From IMG/VR virus record IMGVR_UViG_2565956629_000002, positions 1 through 10,528 of that record: a stretch of DNA of 10,528 nucleotides, one strand, 5' to 3'. Below are positions 208 through 9,440 of the stretch, in pieces (the first letter of the stretch is position 1; the number at the start of each line of letters is the position of its first letter). Source of the DNA: a virus (lineage: Duplodnaviria > Heunggongvirae > Uroviricota > Caudoviricetes). A program made the position numbers and the translations under genes. The notes under the pieces were generated by a model. It saw nothing but the letters and a program-made list of their open reading frames with translations. It had not been told where the DNA came from and made no database searches.

Positions 208-1458
208 GTGCTTACCGATACAAAATTAAAAAACCTCAAGCCGCAGGACAAACTGTACAAGGTCTCCGATCGTGACGGGCTGTATGTAGCTGTGCTTACG
301 TCAGGCACGGTCTCGTTTCGCTACGACTACCGTATCAACGGTCGCCGCGAAACGCTGGTAATCGGGCAGTATGGGCGTGACGGTATCAGCCTGGCAGAAG
401 CGCGAGAAGAACTGATTGCTGCAAAGAAGCTGCTTAAAGCAGGCCAGTCACCGGCTGCGGCTAAACGTGACGGTATCAAAAAGATTCGTGGTGCCGAGAC
501 GTTTGCGGTACATACCGACAGTTATATGAAACACGTCATCCTGGCTGACAGTACCCGCGCAATGAAACAGGCGGTGATCGACCGTGACATACTTCCGGTT
601 CTTGGCAATAAAATGATGGCTGAAATTACCACATCGATGGTTCGTGATTTGTGTGACCGGATTGTCGAACGCGGTGGCCGGGCAACAGCAGTGCAGGCCA
701 GGGAGATCATCAGTAGCGTATACCGTCACGCCAATGACCGTGGTCATGGTTTGTTTAATCCTGCGGCTGACATTAAACCTTCGTCTATCGCCATATTTAA
801 ACCAAGAGAGCGAACACTGACACCAGAAGAAATTGGCCTGTTCTTCCGCACGCTGGATGCCATTGGTGCTATGGGCACTATGAAAATGGCTTTAAAGCTG
901 GTGCTTATCACTATGGTTCGTAAAGGCGAATTCACCAACGCAACGTGGGATGAAATAGATTTTAAAAAATGGACATGGACCATTCCTTCAGACCGCATGA
1001 AGGGAAGCCGGGCGCACGTTATTTACCTGCCTAAACAGGCTCAGGATATATTGGTCGGATTGCAGATGTGCGCTGGTGGAAGTGAATATCTGGTTCCTGG
1101 TCGTTACAATTTCCGGAAGCCATTATCTAATGCCGCGCTGAACTCTCTGATCGACAGAACGGTGAAAATAATAAATGAAGATGGTGAGCATATTCAGGGC
1201 TTCACCGTACACGATATGCGCCGTACAGCCAGTACATTGTTGCATGAGGCTGGTTATCCTTCAGACTGGATTGAAAAGGCTCTGGCACATGAGCAGAAAG
1301 GTGTGCGCGCCGTATATAACAAAGCGGAATACGCCAGACAGCGCGCCTACATGTTGCAGCAGTGGGCCGATATGATTGATTCCTGGATTGACGGGGAGCA
1401 TACGGATCTGATTCCGTTCTCCCCGTCGAAGTTTGAGAAGTGGATGGCGGGGGAATAA
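208..1458 (+). CDS. int: Tyrosine site-specific integrase (P4-like phage integrase family)
   Basis: 416-aa ORF with a GTG start at 208. N-terminus MLTDTKLKNLKP...DGLYV...FRYDYRINGRRE is typical of the P4-type integrase arm-binding domain. C-terminal catalytic signature includes HDMRRT (H-x-x-R) and VRAVYNKAEY (catalytic Tyr), plus the conserved WADMID tail. Confidence 0.93.
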   Translation: MLTDTKLKNLKPQDKLYKVSDRDGLYVAVLTSGTVSFRYDYRINGRRETLVIGQYGRDGISLAEAREELIAAKKLLKAGQSPAAAKRDGIKKIRGAETFAVHTDSYMKHVILADSTRAMKQAVIDRDILPVLGNKMMAEITTSMVRDLCDRIVERGGRATAVQAREIISSVYRHANDRGHGLFNPAADIKPSSIAIFKPRERTLTPEEIGLFFRTLDAIGAMGTMKMALKLVLITMVRKGEFTNATWDEIDFKKWTWTIPSDRMKGSRAHVIYLPKQAQDILVGLQMCAGGSEYLVPGRYNFRKPLSNAALNSLIDRTVKIINEDGEHIQGFTVHDMRRTASTLLHEAGYPSDWIEKALAHEQKGVRAVYNKAEYARQRAYMLQQWADMIDSWIDGEHTDLIPFSPSKFEKWMAGE

Positions 1459-1461
1459 CGT

Positions 1462-1656
1462 TTAATTATTCTGCTGATTTTCTTCCATCTCGGCTTCTGC
1501 TGCCAGTGATTCAATTTTATCTGTGAATATTGCTGACAGTGTTGCAAATTCAGCATCAGTGACAGCGGGAATTGGAACAAACCTGATCCCGCTGTGTGCA
1601 AGCATGTTTGCAGTTTCAAGGCATTTCCTTAAATCTGCTGGTGATGCCCTGTTCAT
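1462..1656 (-). CDS. Small hypothetical protein (64 aa) with acidic C-terminal tail, last gene of the cargo cassette
   Basis: ATG at 1656-1654 overlaps the methyltransferase stop (ATGA overlap). GGGAG lies 8 nt upstream. Protein MNRASPADLRKCLETANMLAHSG...AEAEMEENQQNN. The longer 104-aa track ORF (start 1776) would overlap the MTase out of frame and is disfavoured. Stop is 3 nt from the int stop. Confidence 0.4.
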   Translation of the reverse strand: MNRASPADLRKCLETANMLAHSGIRFVPIPAVTDAEFATLSAIFTDKIESLAAEAEMEENQQNN

Positions 1657-2300
1657 GCTGCACGCTCCCGCCCCTGGTTGTCTGTTGGTGACAGCGGAGC
1701 ATTGCTGAATGCATTTGTTAATCCGGCAATATACAACGCGTATCCAGGGTGTAGTTGCACTGCTGGGTCTTCGCACTGATTACCCCAAACATCGAAGCCA
1801 TGAGACGTTTGGCGGGCGAACAGTTCAATGCGAGAAACATCGCCTAACAATTGCACAAGTTTTTCACGAACGACATCTGGTTTTCTTGAATGCTCAAGCC
1901 GCGGTGCGGTAAATGACTGAACGATACCTGCATTAATGCGCGGAGGTAGTTTTCCCTTTACCGCAAACAGGCAATCTTCACTGTTGGCGCGAGTCATGTG
2001 TCCCATCCCCATAACCAGTTTATCTGGTTGTCGACTACCACATTTTATCCACGTGAAGCCCTTCATGGTCATCAGACGAAATCCCCAGGCTTCAACAACT
2101 TTTAGTGCTTCGAGTGGTTGTGTTGGCACCCACCACATGGCCAACAGACAGTTTTCATCGGCCAAATCCCACACAGGAAGGCGGCAGATATCCAGCACAC
2201 TCATAACCGGATATTTAAAACCGGCACCGCGATTACCATCTGCGGCTTTGTCCCGGTATACCCAGGGTGGATCTGCATAGATTAGCGTGTATTTTTTCAT
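1653..2300 (-). CDS. MT-A70 family N6-adenine DNA methyltransferase (215 aa)
   Basis: Start ATG at 2300 (internal Met of the track ORF) with GGGAG 7 nt upstream. MKKYTLIYADPPWVY carries the DPPW catalytic motif close to the N-terminus, as in MT-A70-type enzymes. ELFARQTSHGFDVWGNQ near the C-terminus is also typical. Start overlaps the stop of the upstream DndB-like gene (ATGA). Confidence 0.85.
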   Translation of the reverse strand: MKKYTLIYADPPWVYRDKAADGNRGAGFKYPVMSVLDICRLPVWDLADENCLLAMWWVPTQPLEALKVVEAWGFRLMTMKGFTWIKCGSRQPDKLVMGMGHMTRANSEDCLFAVKGKLPPRINAGIVQSFTAPRLEHSRKPDVVREKLVQLLGDVSRIELFARQTSHGFDVWGNQCEDPAVQLHPGYALYIAGLTNAFSNAPLSPTDNQGRERAA

Positions 2301-3364
2301 TGTTCTGCTCCCAGACTTCCTTTGGTAAAGGCTTGTATCAGCCTGTTTGCTGCCGCTTTCTGTGCTGCTACATTGGCAATAACTGATAGTTTTTCCTGGC
2401 TTGCTTTCGTGCAGATCCCAACCCAATTATCCATTAGGAAAAAATTCTCTCTTTCTGCGAAGTCAGTATTTGCACATAATGTTTCAATCATTGAAATTAT
2501 TTCTTTTATTGAGTGATTAACCATCATTTGCTGAACAGCATAGCCAAAAGCGTTAATCATCACTGCATGAAACTGGATATATTCTCTTTTGTATTCTGAT
2601 TGCTTTGTACCATGGCGAATTGCTTCTAGTTGTGTAAGACATAACCATGATTCCCATACTGACTCGATGTTACCAATTTCTAGTTTTTTCCCATTATGAA
2701 TACAAAATTTTGATGTTGAATCACTTAATGCTTTGAAACTCACCCACATGTTTGACTTTGACGGAACAACGTTGTGCTCGAAGTCAGTGACTTCTGCAAA
2801 AGTGTCATGTTGCGACAGGAAAGACACCATTTCTTGGGCAACATCGTTTCGTCCGTCATACGCCATATTAATTGCTGCAGATGGTTTTGAAACATTATTA
2901 TTAATGTCAGAAAAGAACTGCTGACGCGCCTTCAAAGGAAGGTTATGCGTAAGCATAAGAGGAATCATAATTGTTTCGCCATAATTACGGCAGAACTCAG
3001 CTAATCCTGCAGCACGATGCTGTCCATCAAATAATTTTATTTCTGCATCCATAGGAAATCTAGCTAAACCGACATTAGTATTTCCAATCTCATGGAACTC
3101 TATTTCTGAGTTACAATTTCCGACCAATGGTGGAACAATAAATGGTTCCTTTTTCTCGTAAGCGTTGACTAAATATTGATAAAACTTTTTTACCCTGGTT
3201 GGATTAATTTCACGTTGAGAACGTTCAAGGGTACTTCCCGTATTGTCGGTTGCCAATACTCTCGATAGTGCTCTTGCTGGTACTGTCATCATAAGTATTA
3301 CAGTGCTTCCCTGCGTTCCTCGTGATGCGGGAAATTCAAAGAAATAATCGCCTACCTTGCTCAT
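2297..3364 (-). CDS. DndB-like DGQHR-domain protein (ParB/Srx-fold, DNA-modification-associated family)
   Basis: Contains the name-giving motif LFDGQHRAAGL and an N-terminal YFFEFPASRGTQG segment as in DndB/DGQHR proteins. Start placed at ATG 3364 (MSKVGDYFF, AGG about 7 nt upstream). An in-frame ATG at 3400 would add 12 N/Q-rich residues and is the alternative. Gene is visibly more AT-rich than its neighbours. Confidence 0.82.
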   Translation of the reverse strand: MSKVGDYFFEFPASRGTQGSTVILMMTVPARALSRVLATDNTGSTLERSQREINPTRVKKFYQYLVNAYEKKEPFIVPPLVGNCNSEIEFHEIGNTNVGLARFPMDAEIKLFDGQHRAAGLAEFCRNYGETIMIPLMLTHNLPLKARQQFFSDINNNVSKPSAAINMAYDGRNDVAQEMVSFLSQHDTFAEVTDFEHNVVPSKSNMWVSFKALSDSTSKFCIHNGKKLEIGNIESVWESWLCLTQLEAIRHGTKQSEYKREYIQFHAVMINAFGYAVQQMMVNHSIKEIISMIETLCANTDFAERENFFLMDNWVGICTKASQEKLSVIANVAAQKAAANRLIQAFTKGSLGAEQ

Positions 3365-3392
3365 GATATTACCTTTTACATTATTGTTTTGA

Positions 3393-3692
3393 TTATTCAT
3401 AAACCACCCCGCAACATCCTATGCCGCTATAGTCGCCACGGCGAAGGCCGTTACCTTTTGTGATACATTGGTCCCTGCGAACCGCGATCCTTGCACGTTC
3501 AACATCACCAGAAGCAACATCCATACACTGAAGCCAAAGGTGAGCGGCAATGCGGAATTGCCCTTTTTTCTCTCTTTCAATCGCGCGTTTTTCGATCTCT
3601 ATCGCCGCAGGAGTAACGGCGACAATCTTTGACGGACTGCGCATTGAAACCTTATTCATGTGATATTTTTCAAGTCGGCTTAACTTTCTCAC
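3393..3692 (-). CDS. Hypothetical small protein, possible first gene of the cargo cassette
   Basis: Only long ORF on either strand in this 300-bp segment. GTG start at 3692 with GAGGG about 9 nt upstream; alternative internal ATG starts at 3659 and 3644. Stop TAA at 3393-3395 lies within the ATGAATAA context of the 3400 alternative start. No recognisable domain. Confidence 0.4.
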   Translation of the reverse strand: MRKLSRLEKYHMNKVSMRSPSKIVAVTPAAIEIEKRAIEREKKGQFRIAAHLWLQCMDVASGDVERARIAVRRDQCITKGNGLRRGDYSGIGCCGVVYE

Positions 3693-3801
3693 TTAATCCA
3701 ACCCTCTCTGAAAATTAATGCCAGCAGATAAAGCCATGCTGAAACAGAGGCCAGGAATAAGTACCATCCTGACCATTTGCTCCAGTGCCTTAGCAGCACA
3801 C

Positions 3802-4050
3802 TCATGCAGCGTTGCTCACAGGACGATATACACGTTGCTGAACAGGAGGCTTTTTACCCTGGAACTCTGCCGGGCTTGCTGCCTGACGTTCATCAAGCCA
3901 ACGCTCAACTTCGTCACGGTTCCATGCGCAGCGTTTGTCAGTGATATACCAGCGTTTAGGAAATTCACCTGCGCGCTCCATACGGTCGATAGTGCTCCAT
4001 GACAGTGGCACCACCGCCAGGAGTTCCTTCTTACCTAATGCACCTTTCAT
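3802..4050 (-). CDS. AlpA/Xis-family excisionase-like DNA-binding protein
   Basis: 82-aa protein with LLAVVPLSWSTIDRMERAGEFPKRWYITDKRCAWNRDEVERWL, the typical MerR-like winged-helix signature of AlpA-type prophage excisionases/regulators. RBS GAGAGGT 5-6 nt upstream of the ATG. Confidence 0.85.
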   Translation of the reverse strand: MKGALGKKELLAVVPLSWSTIDRMERAGEFPKRWYITDKRCAWNRDEVERWLDERQAASPAEFQGKKPPVQQRVYRPVSNAA

Positions 4051-4072
4051 AAATACCTCTCTTGGTTGCAGT

Positions 4073-4091
4073 GCGGCGCGCGTGGCGCCGC
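4073..4091. repeat. GC-rich perfect palindrome (7-bp stem, 5-nt loop) between recT and the excisionase gene
   Basis: GCGGCGC gcgtg GCGCCGC. No T-tract follows on either strand, so it is not a canonical intrinsic terminator. Confidence 0.4.
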
Positions 4092-4099
4092 GGTGGTGG

Positions 4100-5017
4100 T
4101 TACATAGATGTTTCGTTTAATTCTTCCCGACGAACGCTGTAAACGTCGGTGGCTTTTGCCAGCAGTTCGTCATCATCTGAAAGTTTTTGTGCAATGTATT
4201 TGTAAGCCTTATCCAGTTCGGAGACAGTGCTGTAATTCATCGCTGCGCTGGTAAAGGCCATCAGCATTTCTTCTGGATCACGGCTATCCGCTTTACGCGT
4301 TTGCTCATCAGGCTTTTTCACTGTTTTAGCGTTGATCAGACTGTTCATGCTGGATGCTGTGCCGTGCTTTGCCTGACTTCTTGGAGTTACGTCACGTTCA
4401 ATAATGTCAGGTGAGTCGATATATTTACCTTCCATTTCCTCAGCTGTGGCTTGTTGACCAATCTCCGGCCATGCTTTACGTAATGCCTGTGCCTCTGCGC
4501 ATTTTGCCAACTGCGCATAAGGGCGCTTTTTCCACATGGCATTTGGTGCCGATGTGTCACGCCCCCCAGTTGCATAGTTCTCAATCCAGTATTCTTTGGC
4601 GCTAAACTCTACGATTTCCCCGCTTGCCATTCGCTTGCTGACGGTGTACTTACACCACTGAGGGAAGGTAACCTCCACGCCTGAAAGCGTTTGTGTTACA
4701 TCTGGACCGAACTCAGGTTCATTAGCGCCTGCGTAATCGCCGGAACGGTAGGCCTGAATGCGATAAAGTCCAATGCCAGGCATGACCACGTCGCGCCATT
4801 CATTCTTTCCACTCTTCGAGTCTTTAACACTCATTGGTACCAGGTGTACCGGCTTAAGAAGAGGATCGAGTTGACGCGCCCGGCAGTAATCGACTGCCAT
4901 CATTACCGATTCATCTTTTGCCCCAGGGTAAATACTGTTTTTCAGAGCGCTCCATGTAACTTCATCGATTCCCCGAATAGCCAACACATCATTGGTGATT
5001 GCAATTTCGTTGCTCAT
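4100..5017 (-). CDS. recT: RecT-family single-strand annealing recombinase
   Basis: Start ATG at 5017 (internal Met of the track ORF; AGGA 9 nt upstream) overlapping the exonuclease stop (ATGA). A GTG at 5044 is the alternative. SKSGKNEWRDVVMPGIGLYRIQAYRSGDYAG resembles the conserved RecT core as recalled from Rac RecT. Confidence 0.88.
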   Translation of the reverse strand: MSNEIAITNDVLAIRGIDEVTWSALKNSIYPGAKDESVMMAVDYCRARQLDPLLKPVHLVPMSVKDSKSGKNEWRDVVMPGIGLYRIQAYRSGDYAGANEPEFGPDVTQTLSGVEVTFPQWCKYTVSKRMASGEIVEFSAKEYWIENYATGGRDTSAPNAMWKKRPYAQLAKCAEAQALRKAWPEIGQQATAEEMEGKYIDSPDIIERDVTPRSQAKHGTASSMNSLINAKTVKKPDEQTRKADSRDPEEMLMAFTSAAMNYSTVSELDKAYKYIAQKLSDDDELLAKATDVYSVRREELNETSM

Positions 5018-5835
5018 ACGTACATATCCTGTTTGCGTGCCCACTCAGGGCGTTTAATAATTTCCACGCCGCCCCATTCATCGCTGATGCGGCATTCGTG
5101 ATAGGTATTCAGATCCCGGCGGAACAGAGCGTGCCCGGCATCGACATCCGGCGCATCCAGCCCGAACACGCGTACCGGATACCGACCACAATCAATGCTT
5201 TCGCTCACGGCAAGAAAGAAAAAACCATGCGGCTGACCAGTAATCCTCATTGCGCCTTCGCGGTACATTGCGTCCTGCACGTGGTAGCGGAATTCCTCGA
5301 TGTGACGTGCAAAACGGTCCATATCTGCAACCTTTTTCACGTCGACGATCACGTTGTGCTCGTTCAGCCATTTGTCTGGACGAATTCGGCACAACTCACC
5401 CGTCTCTTCATCGTTCCAGTACATTGATGCTTCGCAGTAACCAGGTGCTTCCAGCATCCAGCGTGCCGCCGGGTGAGCCATTGCGCTATCACGCATCAGC
5501 TCCAGTTTCCGCCACTGCTCGGCATCAAGTACCGTAATCCCCATATCCGCTACATCACGAAGAAATGCTTCTTCGTCAGCTTTACCTTGTTTCGTCCGAC
5601 GATCGAACTTCGGTGAAACAATGAAGCGTTTGTCGAATTCTCCAGGCTCCAGAAGCAGACAGTGCAATGCGGTTCCCATATCCAGTGCAGACTTTTTCTC
5701 TTCGTCTTCTGGTGCTGCCTGAACCCATTTAAGAAGCGCCGGATTCTTGGCAACCATGTCCAGTTGCGACTTACTCACGCCGTCACCGGCGTGGTAGTCT
5801 TCGTTGCTGATGTCGAAATAAATTCCCGGTTTCAT
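5014..5835 (-). CDS. RecE-like PD-(D/E)XK exonuclease (exodeoxyribonuclease VIII-like), partner of RecT
   Basis: 273-aa ORF immediately upstream of and translationally coupled to RecT. Sequence features recall the C-terminal nuclease domain of prophage RecE-type exonucleases. ATG at 5835 overlaps the upstream gene stop (ATGA). Confidence 0.8.
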   Translation of the reverse strand: MKPGIYFDISNEDYHAGDGVSKSQLDMVAKNPALLKWVQAAPEDEEKKSALDMGTALHCLLLEPGEFDKRFIVSPKFDRRTKQGKADEEAFLRDVADMGITVLDAEQWRKLELMRDSAMAHPAARWMLEAPGYCEASMYWNDEETGELCRIRPDKWLNEHNVIVDVKKVADMDRFARHIEEFRYHVQDAMYREGAMRITGQPHGFFFLAVSESIDCGRYPVRVFGLDAPDVDAGHALFRRDLNTYHECRISDEWGGVEIIKRPEWARKQDMYV

Positions 5836-6131
5836 GCCGCTTCCCTCTGCCCATCAAGCTGATCCGCCAGATCCCAGCGCGCTATAATTGCCATTGCCTC
5901 GCGCCGGTAGGAATCCATCAGTTCTTCGAACTCAGGGCTGTCTTTAGCAGCCTCCAGCACTTCCTGACGAACGCCTTTGCCTGTTACAACGTCGAAAGTT
6001 GAGGACAGTTGATGAAGTCGGATGCTCTCAATCAGTTCAACTTGTCGGTCATATAGCTGTTCTGACAGGCGGTAGTCCTTGTCGAATGCCAGCATGATTT
6101 TTTGAAGATTTTTCTGCTGATTAACGTTCAT
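5832..6131 (-). CDS. Hypothetical early-left-operon protein (99 aa)
   Basis: Start ATG at 6131 with strong GGAGG 7 nt upstream (an ATG at 6146 is less likely). Stop overlaps the exonuclease start. No recognised domain; occupies a position analogous to gam/abc-type genes in lambdoid phages. Confidence 0.7.
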   Translation of the reverse strand: MNVNQQKNLQKIMLAFDKDYRLSEQLYDRQVELIESIRLHQLSSTFDVVTGKGVRQEVLEAAKDSPEFEELMDSYRREAMAIIARWDLADQLDGQREAA

Positions 6132-6133
6132 TA

Positions 6134-6286
6134 TCAGCCCTCCCATATCTCGTTATCGTTGGCCACATCGCGAGCTTCTTTGCTGACGAAAGCCCACTTA
6201 ATGCCTTCCTGTAAGGTGCGGAACTTCCAGCTCATGAATCCGCATGCAGTAACGCAGTACCAACCGTTGATGATTTTCCACTGCAT
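6134..6286 (-). CDS. Small W/C-rich hypothetical protein (50 aa), first gene after the pL-like promoter
   Basis: Not in the supplied track (under 60 aa). ATG at 6286 with GAGGT 8 nt upstream. Hand translation: MQWKIINGWYCVTACGFMSWKFRTLQEGIKWAFVSKEARDVANDNEIWEG. Stop TGA at 6134-6136 is followed after 2 nt by the next gene's ATG. Confidence 0.5.
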   Translation of the reverse strand: MQWKIINGWYCVTACGFMSWKFRTLQEGIKWAFVSKEARDVANDNEIWEG

Positions 6287-6305
6287 AACTTGTTACCTCG
6301 GTCTG

Positions 6306-6382
6306 TTACCGTTGAGGTAATAATTATGCGTATTTGGTTTGATGTCAATAGATATGAGTTAAAAAAATTACCCATAAGGTAA
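6306..6382. promoter_or_regulatory. OL-like operator pair: two perfect TTACC-N5-GGTAA palindromes flanking the pL-like promoter
   Basis: TTACCgttgaGGTAA (6306-6320) and TTACCcataaGGTAA (6368-6382), 62 bp centre to centre. Confidence 0.6.
6320..6348 (-). promoter_or_regulatory. pL-like early leftward promoter
   Basis: On the minus strand: TTGACA (complement of 6343-6348), 17-nt spacer, AATTAT abutting the 6306-6320 operator. The second operator lies 19 bp upstream of the -35. Confidence 0.45.
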
Positions 6383-6393
6383 TCTTGTTGGCA

Positions 6394-6418
6394 ATAAAAA
6401 AGCCGCCATGAGGCGGCT
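6394..6418 (-). terminator. Rho-independent terminator downstream of the repressor gene
   Basis: Stem AGCCGCC (6401-6407), loop ATGA, stem GGCGGCT (6412-6418). On the minus strand the hairpin is followed by TTTTTTAT (plus-strand A-tract 6394-6400). Confidence 0.65.
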
Positions 6419-6439
6419 TACTTACTGAAAACTATAGTT

Positions 6440-7024
6440 TTATTGTTTGCTTCTTTCGTTCTGGCTGATGACAAATTCAATGTAACTTTCGATCTTTGCC
6501 TTCTCTGTTTCGGGTAACAATGCGTAGCGCGAGCGGTCATAGTTGATAGTCGCAGGGTCGTGCGGGTGAATCAGTAATTCATAGCCGTGACGCCCGAATG
6601 CGGATGCAACATTCTCCAGGGTGGAAATGGAAACGCTGACTTCATTGTTTAACAGGCGGCTGATTGTCACCTGGGCGACGCCGGATGCGCGGTGTAGTTT
6701 TCCCTGCGTTGAAAGGTCGCGGCTTTCGCTCATCCAGCGTTCCAGGTTGTGAGCCGCCAGCTGACCAATGTCGCTTGGGCCGACAGGCTGAAACCCCTCC
6801 TGAGAAAGCGAGCGATCGATATCAAGCCAGTTACGGGGTTTATTGGCGGCAGCTTCAATTTTTCGCGCAACCTGGTCGCCGATAACCTTCTTGCCAAGAG
6901 CCCAGCGGTTTACCAGATTTGCCTGAGTTCCAAGTTTTTCTGCCATCCGCGTCTGAACACCATTGAATTCACGGTCGATCAAGTCGTTGAGATTTTGCCT
7001 GCGGACGTCCTGGATACTTTTCAT
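6440..7024 (-). CDS. Prophage repressor-like protein with two HTH domains and no S24 peptidase domain
   Basis: 194 aa, transcribed divergently from the cro-like gene across an operator-rich region. Two HTH-like segments (QTRMAEKLGTQANLVNRWALGKK and LHRASGVAQVTISRLLNNEVSVS). No LexA-type Ala-Gly cleavage site or Ser/Lys peptidase module recognisable. Confidence 0.8.
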   Translation of the reverse strand: MKSIQDVRRQNLNDLIDREFNGVQTRMAEKLGTQANLVNRWALGKKVIGDQVARKIEAAANKPRNWLDIDRSLSQEGFQPVGPSDIGQLAAHNLERWMSESRDLSTQGKLHRASGVAQVTISRLLNNEVSVSISTLENVASAFGRHGYELLIHPHDPATINYDRSRYALLPETEKAKIESYIEFVISQNERSKQ

Positions 7025-7079
7025 TTTCTGGAAAATCGCCTCATATATGAATCAGTAGATGATTCAATTTAAAGCAATA

Positions 7080-7142
7080 TTACCCAACAGGTAAATGCAC
7101 CTCATAGGTAACTATCCTTGATTTTTGTTACCTTATGGGTGA
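7080..7142. promoter_or_regulatory. OR-like operator cluster between the repressor and cro-like genes
   Basis: TTACCcaacaGGTAA (7080-7094, perfect), gcACCtcataGGTAA (7097-7111, degenerate), TTACCttatgGGTgA (7128-7142, one mismatch). Confidence 0.6.
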
Positions 7143-7153
7143 ATATTTATTAT
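7125..7153 (+). promoter_or_regulatory. pR-like promoter for the cro-like gene
   Basis: TTGTTA (7125-7130), 17-nt spacer, TATTAT (7148-7153). The 7128-7142 operator overlaps the -35 and spacer. Confidence 0.35.
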
Positions 7154-7178
7154 CTGAAATAAATATCAGGCAATAGCT

Positions 7179-7409
7179 ATGAGCGATAACGGACATTTCG
7201 ATTTCAAAAAGCACTGGCTTGCACTTACTCCGGATGAGCGTGAAGCCTTCGCACAGGAAGCCGGAACGACGAGTCACTATATCCAGACTCACTTAACAGG
7301 TAAGCGCAAAATGCCAGGTAAAGTATTGATGAATGGGCTTTTTAAAGCCTGTAAAACAAGACAATGGCTGCGCTCAAAAGCAGAACTGGCATACTTCTTC
7401 TACTCATGA
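7179..7409 (+). CDS. Cro-like small HTH regulator (76 aa)
   Basis: Divergent from the repressor, immediately right of the OR-like operators. HTH-like segment REAFAQEAGTTSHYIQTHLTGKRKM. Followed by a terminator. Confidence 0.75.
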   Translation: MSDNGHFDFKKHWLALTPDEREAFAQEAGTTSHYIQTHLTGKRKMPGKVLMNGLFKACKTRQWLRSKAELAYFFYS

Positions 7410-7431
7410 TATCCAGCTACAACCCTCTGTA

Positions 7432-7453
7432 GACCGCCACCCGGCGGTCTTTT
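7432..7453 (+). terminator. tR1-like rho-independent terminator after the cro-like gene
   Basis: Stem GACCGCC (7432-7438), loop ACCC, stem GGCGGTC (7443-7449), then TTTT (short T-tract). Confidence 0.5.
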
Positions 7454-7557
7454 CATATCTATTCGTACCTCAAAGGTAATAAAAAACCAAATCTGGTTGA
7501 TCAAATTTTCCAATTGTGCAAAATATCCAATATCAATAACAAAAAGAGGCGGAAAAA

Positions 7558-7770
7558 TTGAAGATAGTAACCAGAATGGAGGCCGCAAAAGCCGGGTTAA
7601 ATCGCTATTTCACAGGAAAGCGGTGCCGTCACGGCCATCTCTCTGAAAGGTATGTTCTGAACGGAACATGTGTTGAATGTGCAATGAATAGCGCCAACCG
7701 CCATCGTAATGAATTTGCTTGTGCACTAAAGAGTGCAAGAGGGGAAACCTATGGCAAGCAGCTGGATTAA
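7558..7770 (+). CDS. Small zinc-finger-like protein at the CII position
   Basis: KRCRHGHLSERYVLNGTCVECA has a Cys/His cluster (C-x-H-x-H ... C-x-x-C). TTG start at 7558 with GAGG 8 nt upstream; the first ATG is at 7576 without an obvious SD. 3' end overlaps the next gene. Confidence 0.6.
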   Translation: MKIVTRMEAAKAGLNRYFTGKRCRHGHLSERYVLNGTCVECAMNSANRHRNEFACALKSARGETYGKQLD

Positions 7771-9323: not shown

Positions 9324-9360
9324 TACCAGCGCGATAGCGCATTTTTTTACGTCTCGATAA

Positions 9361-9437
9361 TTACCTGTGAGGTAATAAAATATTCTAAACTCTATTGATT
9401 TCGTGTCTTATGTGGTTTTTAATTACCTCAGGGGTAA
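9361..9437. promoter_or_regulatory. Third operator pair (O3) flanking a promoter downstream of the replication genes
   Basis: TTACCtgtgaGGTAA (9361-9375) and TTACCtcaggGGTAA (9423-9437), both perfect, 62 bp centre to centre: the same spacing as the OL pair. Confidence 0.55.
9395..9423 (+). promoter_or_regulatory. Candidate repressor-controlled rightward promoter (P3)
   Basis: TTGATT (9395-9400), 17-nt spacer, TTTAAT (9418-9423) abutting the downstream operator. The upstream operator ends 19 bp before the -35, the same geometry as the pL-like promoter. Confidence 0.45.
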
Positions 9438-9440
9438 ATT

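Follow-up and report, generated by a model that had tools for sequence, protein, structure and literature searches.

A low-GC DGQHR-domain gene in the early-left operon of a phiV10-like Escherichia coli prophage as a probable horizontal acquisition

The low-GC stretch described here is, in all likelihood, a single horizontally acquired accessory gene that occupies a recombination-prone slot in the early-left operon of a phiV10-like prophage. The DNA analyzed (10,528 nt of IMG/VR record IMGVR_UViG_2565956629_000002, called the window below) is identical to the phiV10-like (Uetakevirus) prophage adjoining guaA in E. coli APEC E19035. The gene (positions 2297 to 3364, minus strand; 355 amino acids) encodes a DGQHR-domain protein of the DndB family with a ParB/sulfiredoxin fold. 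RefSeq names the product "DGQHR domain-containing protein" (WP_001312000.1), its coordinates agree with ours, and the start of the protein, MSKVGDYFF, is kept in orthologues. Relatives show the empty site, the junctions could be placed to within a few bases, and the neighbor is resident; as phage mosaicism, the insertion is thus a clean textbook example that serves well as a worked illustration but holds no surprise.

Composition of the DGQHR gene

The preliminary description of this DNA held, by eye, that the DndB-like gene was lower in GC than the integrase, RecT, and exonuclease genes. Computation bore this out: the GC content of the gene is 0.390 (GC1 0.478, GC2 0.371, GC3 0.320), compared with 0.500, 0.484, and 0.526 for those three genes, 0.495 for the adjacent methyltransferase (MTase) gene, 0.48 for the PerC open reading frame (ORF), and 0.487 for all bases of the window outside 2297 to 3400. 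The AT-rich runs that had been pointed out near 2440 to 2720 and 3040 to 3200 are indeed the most AT-rich parts of the gene (GC 0.324 and 0.348, respectively), and runs of at least 8 nt composed of A and T only are found at 7.3/kb within the gene versus 3.4/kb outside it.

The gene also stands out on a sliding-window scale. The 1,096-nt block from 2297 to 3392 has a GC content of 0.385 (2 × 2 chi-square, P = 2.7 × 10−10), which lies well below that of same-length windows of the stretch (z = −4.27; 7,242 non-overlapping windows of 1,096 nt each; mean 0.487, SD 0.024, minimum 0.416). Elsewhere in the window, GC content over 1.1 kb never drops so far, and the lowest-GC 1,096-nt window in the whole sequence begins at 2308. 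A two-change-point fit gave 2425 to 3403 as the best segment (GC 0.37), with the upper change-point within ~10 nt of the insertion junction described below. The final 129 nt of the gene are less AT-rich (GC 0.47), which we attribute to Ala/Gly-rich coding. An internal crossover in these 129 nt was considered and rejected, given that GC3 is still 0.37 there and that inspection by eye showed no clear resemblance in nucleotides to other alleles.

Codon usage gave a divided answer. Synonymous codons of the DGQHR gene differ from those of the other phage genes (G = 98.9, df 41, P = 1 × 10−6), and no difference was detected for the genes encoding the MTase (P = 0.2), PerC (P = 0.34), RecT (P = 0.26), or the exonuclease (P = 0.15). 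Codon adaptation was less informative: a CAI-like index is low in the DGQHR gene (0.458) but not uniquely so, since the replication genes fall at 0.43 to 0.47, and this index, whose reference consisted of three host genes (guaA, guaB, and xseA), does not discriminate.

The slot between perC and the methyltransferase gene

The gene lies between a PerC-family transcriptional activator gene upstream (3393 to 3644, minus strand, by the RefSeq start, with the ORF extending to 3692; Pfam PerC, E = 6 × 10−7; phrog_868), which belongs to the phage backbone and is 99% identical in DNA to that of phiV10, and the MTase gene downstream. In phiV10 and the gene-less E. coli copies, the flanks are ~98% identical to those of the window and the perC stop codon directly overlaps the MTase start. 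Only the flanks are matched by phiV10 and a further 16 phage records, in which they are contiguous. Among 561 E. coli genomes that hold the region, the DGQHR gene is present in 21 and missing from ~540 (~96%). A ~1.1-kb low-GC block (38% GC), consisting of the DGQHR gene and a 28-nt leader only, fills the perC/MTase junction exactly. The content of this slot varies among relatives: nothing in phiV10, a short ORF in epsilon15, DUF1317 with a winged helix-turn-helix gene in Tyrion, and DUF1317 with a DGQHR gene in SPN1S. Thus, the gene is missing from relatives that share both flanks, its junctions are sharp, and its composition and codon usage differ from those of its surroundings, as is characteristic of an accessory gene. 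The earlier proposal that it had been acquired is supported by the gene-less state of phiV10, several relatives, and most E. coli copies between the same flanks and by the variable slot content. We infer the direction of change (gain here versus loss elsewhere) from frequency and composition and not from a rooted phage phylogeny.

The junctions were mapped to 3392 to 3396 and ~2297 to 2300. At the left junction (ATGAATAA, 3393 to 3400, minus strand, from the alignment of the window with phiV10), the perC stop codon at 3395 to 3393 overlaps an ATG at 3400 to 3398. This ATG is the MTase start codon in phiV10, where the perC and MTase coding sequences overlap by 8 nt; here it opens an alternative DGQHR ORF that is 12 codons longer. 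The sequence common to the window and phiV10 runs to ...GGGGTGGTTTATGA and diverges thereafter. What follows is the AT-rich leader (3365 to 3392, minus strand; GC 0.21), with an AAAGG Shine-Dalgarno-like motif ~8 nt ahead of the ATG at 3364. The alignment shows no such leader in phiV10; judging from this, it arrived together with the insert. At the right junction (ATGA, 2297 to 2300, minus strand), the TGA stop codon of the DGQHR gene overlaps the ATG of the MTase gene, a translational-coupling geometry that suggests co-translation. The same TGA/ATG overlap was found in SPN1S and in a Citrobacter prophage (the loci with this overlap include L010 and L025). Identity of the phiV10 type is back by position 2297; the MTase gene begins with ATGAAAAAATAC, a start of the donor type, in the window versus ATGACTAAGAAATAC in phiV10, and its mismatches are evenly spread, up to 2295.

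An alternative history would make the DGQHR gene ancestral to a Uetakevirus perC-DGQHR-MTase order and precisely deleted in phiV10-type phages, its low GC being due to gene-specific pressure (e.g., amino acid composition or selection for AT-richness, as in H-NS silencing) and not to foreign origin. The orthologue in the Salmonella Uetakeviruses SPN1S and SPC32H, which is 76% identical in protein and of the same PHROG, speaks for it by lying, like the window gene, between perC and the MT-A70 gene and by its TGA/ATG overlap; the Citrobacter orthologue likewise shares position and overlap, and the divergence between the window and SPN1S is alike for the DGQHR protein (76%), the MTase (78%), and PerC (78%). 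The SPN1S copy has a GC content of 0.51 and a GC3 of 0.59 that match its own genome, is preceded by DUF1317, and is 69% identical in nucleotides to that of the window. Against deletion, its protein is 91% identical to Enterobacter-type alleles (the window protein is 73 to 75% identical to all of these), which points to exchange and not to vertical descent. The empty or otherwise filled slots of phiV10, epsilon15, Tyrion, and most E. coli copies also stand against deletion, as does the insert being less diverged among carriers (99.3 to 100% identical) than the flanks (96.4 to 99.7%).

Pressure from amino acid composition fares no better against the orthologues. Those with the same conserved residues have a GC3 of 0.52 to 0.72, which shows that the protein can do without AT-rich codons. 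At third positions of conserved residues, A/T here with G/C in an orthologue was counted 88 to 124 times versus 19 to 29 times for the reverse (~3:1). Across 93 homologous loci, gene GC ranges from 0.43 to 0.56 and mostly stays within a few points of flank GC; compared with these, the window allele, at 0.10 below its flanks, is the sole such case. Fairly AT-rich, too, is the allele of another E. coli prophage (GC 0.43), which would fit an ancestral gene. A midpoint-rooted neighbor-joining tree groups the two AT-rich E. coli alleles; we do not take this as a sign of kinship, as raw identity between them is 73 to 74% versus 76 to 78% to others, and compositional attraction is the likely cause. 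On balance, we regard ancestry followed by deletion as improbable.

Horizontal acquisition raises the question of the donor. No allele at 78 to 99% identity and no low-GC host turned up in 50,697 phage records (tblastn), in 5,426 E. coli genomes (megablast), or in scans of GTDB species representatives and IMG/VR; a search of 5.8 billion nonredundant proteins, a collection that takes in metagenome sources, gave a next-best match of just 78% identity, and cluster members at ≥90% identity came exclusively from Escherichia. With the donor absent from these searches, composition is the one line of evidence that points to a low-GC origin. The GC content by codon position (47.8, 37.1, and 32.0%) looks like equilibrium in a genome of ~35 to 39% GC. 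The earlier suggestion of a recent arrival from a lower-GC donor is therefore supported indirectly, by the lower divergence of the insert relative to the flanks, the codon-position GC, and the third-position bias.

Acquisition may have proceeded as follows. The block would have entered by recombination with a temperate phage that already had the DGQHR-ATGA-MTase order, with one crossover at the microhomology between the perC stop and ATGA and the other no more than ~15 nt into the MTase gene. Before that, the donor lineage would have been long resident in a background of ~35 to 40% GC, and the allele would since have spread among phiV10-like prophages without ameliorating.

Morons and other accessory genes of atypical GC are familiar in temperate phages from Hendrix-type mosaicism. 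Like them, the DGQHR gene is a single extra gene present in some, though not most, close relatives, with sharp boundaries at gene junctions and a composition unlike that of its flanks. Unlike them, it has no detected promoter or terminator of its own and appears to be coupled in translation to a neighbor in an operon that was already there; it therefore resembles a slot exchange by recombination more than an autonomous moron. A second variable slot lies between the MTase and integrase genes, where the window holds a DUF1382 gene (1462 to 1656, minus strand; Pfam DUF1382; GC3 0.34) and other E. coli prophages have a Ser/Thr phosphatase gene, or a hypothetical gene with Ant, in its place.

The neighboring methyltransferase

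The gene at 1653 to 2300 (minus strand) encodes an MT-A70-family N6-adenine DNA methyltransferase with a DPPW motif (Pfam MT-A70, E = 5.7 × 10−22; PADLOC MTase_II, E = 2 × 10−76). It is 97% identical in protein and ~98% in DNA to that of phiV10, up to the third codon, and was found in all five Uetakeviruses examined, among them phiV10, epsilon15, Tyrion, and SPN1S. By these comparisons, the MTase is a resident gene of the phage backbone. The idea that the cassette is itself mosaic, with an MTase closer to the local composition, thus stands: the MTase is native by distribution, by identity to phiV10, and by its local GC, and the identity matrices of the two proteins are incongruent.

Joint gain of the DGQHR and MTase genes as a two-gene modification module related to Dnd or restriction-modification would account for the 4-nt ATGA overlap, with the co-translation it suggests, for the PADLOC matches to the DndB and MTase_II models, and for the gene order in relatives, where a DNA MTase gene lies next downstream of 32 of 53 distinct DGQHR alleles (families MT-A70, Dam, N6_N4, and C5). 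We nevertheless consider it highly improbable. The normal GC and codon usage of the MTase gene and its near identity to that of the DGQHR-less phiV10 argue against it, and by the same phiV10 comparison the 5′ region of the MTase gene is not donor-derived over hundreds of bases. In addition, neither a restriction gene nor dndC, dndD, or dndE turned up in the ORF list of the window or a Pfam scan of nine of its ORFs, and the DndB operator motif is absent.

Nor did the two proteins show a common history. A Mantel test over 19 paired DGQHR/MTase loci gave r = 0.71, a value that owed its size to near-identical loci; when each clade was reduced to a single representative, r fell to 0.40 (P = 0.07), and the matrices were clearly incongruent. 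Co-evolution of the DndB-like protein and the MTase, a point raised in the preliminary description, is accordingly not borne out between clades. SPN1S provides an example, in that the MT-A70 proteins accompanying the Enterobacter-type alleles share just 50% identity with its own MTase. The shared history and composition that would mark the partners of a two-gene cassette were not found. Because relatives so often lie upstream of DNA MTases, the juxtaposition may still be functionally favored despite separate histories. However, the MTase occurs without the DGQHR gene in most prophages, and 21 of the 53 alleles have no MTase nearby; hence, neither gene needs the other.

Protein family, expression, and possible function

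The DGQHR protein scored above the cut-offs of PF14072 (Pfam DndB; 158.3 bits versus 29.1) and TIGR03187 (DGQHR domain; 192.4 bits versus 58.85) and below that of the DndB equivalog TIGR03233 (110 bits versus 328). Its translation contains the signature motifs listed for the family (QR pair, DGQHR pentapeptide, and FxxxN; PMC4619093) as SQRE, FDGQHRAAG, and FSDIN. Across 42 homologues, D113, G114, Q115, and R117 never vary, and conservation of H116 is 90% or higher. Fold comparison indicated a ParB/sulfiredoxin-type fold; a sequence search of the PDB gave no match at E values up to 1. PADLOC matched the protein to its DndB model only, and Pfam revealed no nuclease or other effector domain. The PHROG is phrog_7901 (E = 1.9 × 10−226), which carries no assigned function and whose members are frequent in E. 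coli, Salmonella, Klebsiella, and Enterobacter prophages.

The protein shares PF14072, TIGR03187, the QR/DGQHR/FxxxN motifs, and the ParB/sulfiredoxin-like fold with DndB/DptB, the regulator of dndBCDE in Salmonella Cerro 87 (PMC4507180). In contrast to that regulator, besides falling short of the equivalog cut-off, its gene sits in a phage early operon adjoining an adenine MTase gene, and no dnd genes (dndCDE or dndFGH) were found near it in the window ORF list, a Pfam scan of nine ORFs, or the RefSeq annotation, which give PerC, the MT-A70 MTase, DUF1382, and the integrase as its neighbors. The operators to which DndB binds in its own promoter have the form TACGN10CGTA (PMC4507180); this motif has no exact occurrence in the window, and its four one-mismatch occurrences (2.2 expected) do not exceed chance, with none upstream of the DGQHR gene. 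The gene is not part of a dnd phosphorothioation system.

A role in defense could also be imagined, with the gene acting as an anti-phage or superinfection-exclusion moron that is expressed in the lysogen and AT-rich like many defense-island genes. Its sporadic, accessory distribution and atypical composition would fit, as would the location of relatives near RexAB or SieB in other prophages and the presence of a ParB/DGQHR-like fold in the defense proteins GmrSD/BrxU and SspE (PMC4619093 and fold comparison here). Yet a consensus scan of 1400 to 4150 found no sigma-70-like promoter and no terminator flanking the gene on its own strand; the three terminator-like sites that it did find all lie on the other strand. 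An autonomous moron was rejected on this outcome. Moreover, the gene overlaps its neighbors in an early-left operon that would be repressed in the lysogen by analogy with epsilon15 and lambda, and, as noted above, Pfam showed no effector domain and PADLOC matched DndB only. Defense is thus an unlikely function.

We tentatively favor another role, in which the DGQHR protein, quite possibly binding nucleotide and DNA, may act as a switch or regulator tied to phage DNA methylation or anti-restriction; it would be co-translated with the MTase that follows it in the early operon. Binding of ATP and GTP has been reported for a bacterial DndB-like protein, and fusions of ParB-fold and MTase domains are reported to be common in phages (PMC12704722). 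Those fusions likewise combine a ParB/sulfiredoxin-fold module with a DNA MTase in prophages; here, in contrast, the genes are separate though overlapping (ATGA), the module is of the DGQHR/DndB subfamily and not PF02195, and MTases of the window type lack a DGQHR gene in most related prophages; the partnership is putative. That DGQHR genes repeatedly precede MTases of four unrelated families suggests that phage methylation or anti-restriction may be linked to an NTP-binding protein of the ParB fold. More speculatively, and with considerable doubt on our part, stand-alone DGQHR proteins of temperate enterobacterial phages could be trans-acting ParB-fold partners of orphan MTases, that is, split ParB-MTase fusions. 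Such a protein would be loaded onto phage DNA or mark it, perhaps with a need for NTP, and direct or regulate the downstream MTase of whatever family. If true, this would explain both why 32 of the 53 alleles precede MTases and why a foreign allele became fixed exactly at the MTase start codon. Near-identical prophage pairs with and without the DGQHR gene provide natural test material for the methylation link.

Composition of the DGQHR gene and its neighbors

The ORF list and family scans show that the window is the left arm of a temperate phage. An integrase gene (208-1458, +) is followed on the opposite strand by a DUF1382 gene (1462-1656, −), an MT-A70 adenine methyltransferase gene (MTase; 1653-2300, −), the DGQHR/DndB-family gene (2297-3364, −), a PerC gene (3393-3644, −), an AlpA/Xis-like gene (3802-4050, −), a RecT gene (segment 4100-5044, −), and a PD-(D/E)XK exonuclease gene (5014-5835, −), with immunity and replication genes beyond the exonuclease. 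Positions 1400 to 4100 are 100% identical to a prophage adjoining guaA in Escherichia coli O2:K1:H5 APEC E19035, in which RefSeq already labels the gene "DGQHR domain-containing protein." The backbone is ∼98% identical to that of Escherichia phage phiV10 (genus Uetakevirus, epsilon15-like).

The preliminary description judged by eye that the DGQHR gene was lower in GC than the integrase, RecT, and exonuclease genes, and the computed values agree (0.390 versus 0.500, 0.484, and 0.526, respectively; rest of window, 0.487). GC by codon position was 0.478 (GC1), 0.371 (GC2), and 0.320 (GC3), and the two AT-rich stretches singled out by eye had GC contents of 0.324 and 0.348. The block from 2297 to 3392 (1,096 nt; GC 0.385) was extreme relative to 7,242 other windows of the same length (z = −4.3; minimum 0.416), the lowest-GC window of that length in the entire sequence begins at 2308, and a two-change-point likelihood scan placed the low-GC segment at 2425-3403. 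Synonymous codon usage also departed from that of the remaining phage genes taken together (G = 98.9; df 41; P = 1 × 10−6). No such departure was detected for the MTase, PerC, RecT, or exonuclease genes (P = 0.15 to 0.34), and the MTase, with a GC content of 0.495, is indeed nearer to the local composition, as had been proposed. Codon adaptation was less discriminating: a CAI-like index (reference genes guaA, guaB, and xseA) was low for the DGQHR gene but not uniquely so in the window. The DUF1382 gene likewise has a low GC3 (0.34). Elsewhere in the window, low GC (0.31 to 0.42) is confined to short noncoding intergenic regions around the immunity and replication genes (7025-7178, 6147-6439, and 9324-9440).

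Probable exchange at the perC-MTase slot

The junction between perC and the MTase gene is empty in phiV10, contains a short ORF in epsilon15, DUF1317 and a winged-helix gene in Enterobacter phage Tyrion, DUF1317 and a DGQHR gene in SPN1S, and the low-GC DGQHR gene in the window. All five of these phages carry the MT-A70 gene, and the window MTase shares 97% protein identity with that of phiV10. The slot is therefore variable and the MTase resident, so the earlier suggestion of a mosaic cassette was correct. The interval between the MTase and integrase genes is a further variable slot: the place of DUF1382 is taken in other E. coli prophages (L098 and L099) by a Ser/Thr phosphatase gene or by a hypothetical gene plus the Ant antirepressor gene.

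phiV10 and 16 other phage records matched the query flanks only, and both flanks adjoin in those records. Among 5,426 complete E. coli genomes searched, the region was found in 561 and the DGQHR gene in only 21. Compared with most relatives, the window thus carries the gene as an insertion. The perC stop and the MTase start overlap in phiV10 (…GGTTTATGACTAAGAAATACAC…). The window has the same left flank (…GGTTTATGA), followed by a 28-nt AT-rich leader and the DGQHR ORF, after which the sequence (…CAATGAAAAAATACAC…) returns to backbone identity. Mismatches to phiV10-type MTases are evenly distributed as far as position 2295, placing the right crossover within the first ∼15 nt of the MTase gene.

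The ATG at 3400 would begin a DGQHR ORF reading 12 codons longer than that from the conserved start common to orthologues (MSKVG… at 3364); this ATG is the ancestral MTase start codon. The same triplet (3398-3400), the MTase start in phiV10, still overlaps the perC stop (3393-3395; ATGAATAA), so that the insertion has left a possibly functional signal for translational coupling ahead of the new gene. At the other end, the DGQHR stop and MTase start overlap as ATGA, the same arrangement as in Salmonella phage SPN1S, a Citrobacter werkmanii prophage, and an IMG/VR contig. The MTase 5′ start differs between the window (ATGAAAAAATAC) and phiV10 (ATGACTAAGAAATAC), suggesting that a DGQHR-MTase junction was already in place in the incoming DNA and that the recombination may have been resolved within the 5′ end of the MTase gene, where the two are homologous. 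A gene-slot exchange between two temperate phages describes the event better than a free-standing insertion does, and it is an ordinary case of phage mosaicism.

Upstream of its ATG, the MTase frame (1653-2426, −) has no stop for a further 42 codons, as far as a TTG at 2426, and this extension overlaps the DGQHR gene at its 3′ end; MTases of phrog_359 have an N terminus ∼118 residues longer than that of the window MTase. Elsewhere, the match of the recT segment to phiV10 is limited to 249 nt (99%), but that of the exonuclease gene spans its full length (98%), so the recombination module is either also mosaic relative to phiV10 or differently annotated. The phiV10 annotation has one RecE-RecT fusion CDS.

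Origin of the allele

The 93 homologous loci compared (drawn from phages, GTDB genomes, IMG/VR, and contig look-ups) had gene GC contents of 0.43 to 0.56, in most cases differing from flank GC by a few points at most; the window allele (0.385 to 0.39) was the only one ∼0.10 below its own flanks. Its nucleotide identity to any other allele was 64 to 71%. More than half of conserved residues use a different codon, and at those residues, third positions that are A/T in the window allele but G/C in its orthologue were 3 to 6 times commoner than the reverse. Amino acid content also differed from that of the GC-richest alleles (FYMINK, 0.318 versus ∼0.285; GARP, 0.214 versus ∼0.26). Under the Lawrence-Ochman codon-position regressions, GC1, GC2, and GC3 correspond to a genome of roughly 34 to 38.5% GC, with no sign of GC3 drifting ahead of GC1 and GC2, suggesting that amelioration has not occurred. 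Identity among carriers was 99.3 to 100% for the insert and 96.4 to 99.7% for the flanks, which fits arrival after backbone diversification. Composition and insert identity lend indirect support to the proposed recent acquisition from a lower-GC donor, but the searches did not find that donor: the 90% cluster of the protein contains Escherichia sequences only, and the best protein outside it among 5.8 billion searched was 78% identical.

Co-evolution of the DGQHR and MTase genes, raised in the preliminary description, was compared over ten paired loci (six clades with both genes). The Mantel correlation over all 19 paired loci (r = 0.71) reflects the inclusion of near-identical loci; with one representative per clade, it was 0.40 (P = 0.07). 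SPN1S DGQHR is 89 to 92% identical to Enterobacter-type alleles, but its MTase is only ∼50% identical to the MT-A70 proteins adjoining those alleles. The window DGQHR protein is 73 to 75% identical to all other alleles compared, and its MTase is 76% identical to that of SPN1S and 47% to the others.

Protein family and genomic context

Scores of the DGQHR protein exceeded the cutoffs for Pfam DndB and for the TIGR03187 DGQHR model but fell far short of that for the DndB equivalog model (110 versus 328 bits), and it belongs to phrog_7901, a PHROG without known function. It contains the QR, DGQHR, and FxxxN motifs, with DGQ-R invariant in 42 homologues. An AlphaFold2 model (pLDDT 83) predicts an N-terminal half of mixed alpha/beta structure and a C-terminal half made up of helices. 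The ORF list, the RefSeq annotation, and a Pfam scan covering nine of the window's ORFs revealed no dnd genes, nor was the DndB operator motif enriched in the window. Neither a sigma-70-like promoter nor a same-strand terminator was found flanking the gene; as the region is syntenic with epsilon15 and lambda, expression as part of the early-left operon is most likely.

The most interesting remaining point is the adjacency of DGQHR genes to MTases of whatever family. Of 53 distinct alleles for which sufficient downstream sequence was available, 32 have a DNA MTase no more than 2.5 kb downstream, drawn from four unrelated Pfam families (MT-A70, Dam [PF05869], N6_N4 [PF01555], and C5 [PF00145]); examples are L006, L024, L027, and L029, among others, with DGQHR at ∼4001-5062 and MTases at ∼5526-7705. 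In Enterobacter-type phages, the DGQHR gene is followed by MT-A70, Dam, or N6_N4 plus C5, usually with a conserved 154-amino-acid ORF without a Pfam hit in between. DndB itself represses by binding DNA (PMC4507180); a published survey found ParB-fold-MTase fusions to be common in prophages and reported ATP and GTP binding by a bacterial DndB-like protein (PMC12704722). Our working model is that the DGQHR protein may be a DNA-binding, nucleotide-dependent switch acting with or on phage DNA methylation or antirestriction. Positional conservation of the "MTase slot" could, however, be the source of part of the association; 21 of the 53 alleles lack an MTase, and most prophages have an MTase without DGQHR.

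In Klebsiella prophages (L094/L095, 5325-6347; L004, 4570-5478), a ParB-HTH gene precedes the DGQHR gene and a dATP/dGTP pyrophosphohydrolase-family gene (PF04447, formerly DUF550) follows it, a neighborhood that differs from the others but is also nucleotide or DNA related. The common E. coli lambdoid allele (GC 0.43) has gam/DUF1317 on one side and a TraR-like gene on the other. The DGQHR protein encoded on a 5.5-kb contig labeled as a "Bacillota bacterium" MAG (L008; JAEWTL010000063.1) occurs in identical form at 11 IMG/VR loci; its allele falls in the AT-rich group (GC 0.43) with the E. coli lambdoid-prophage allele P0020, and the contig is probably a misbinned enterobacterial phage.
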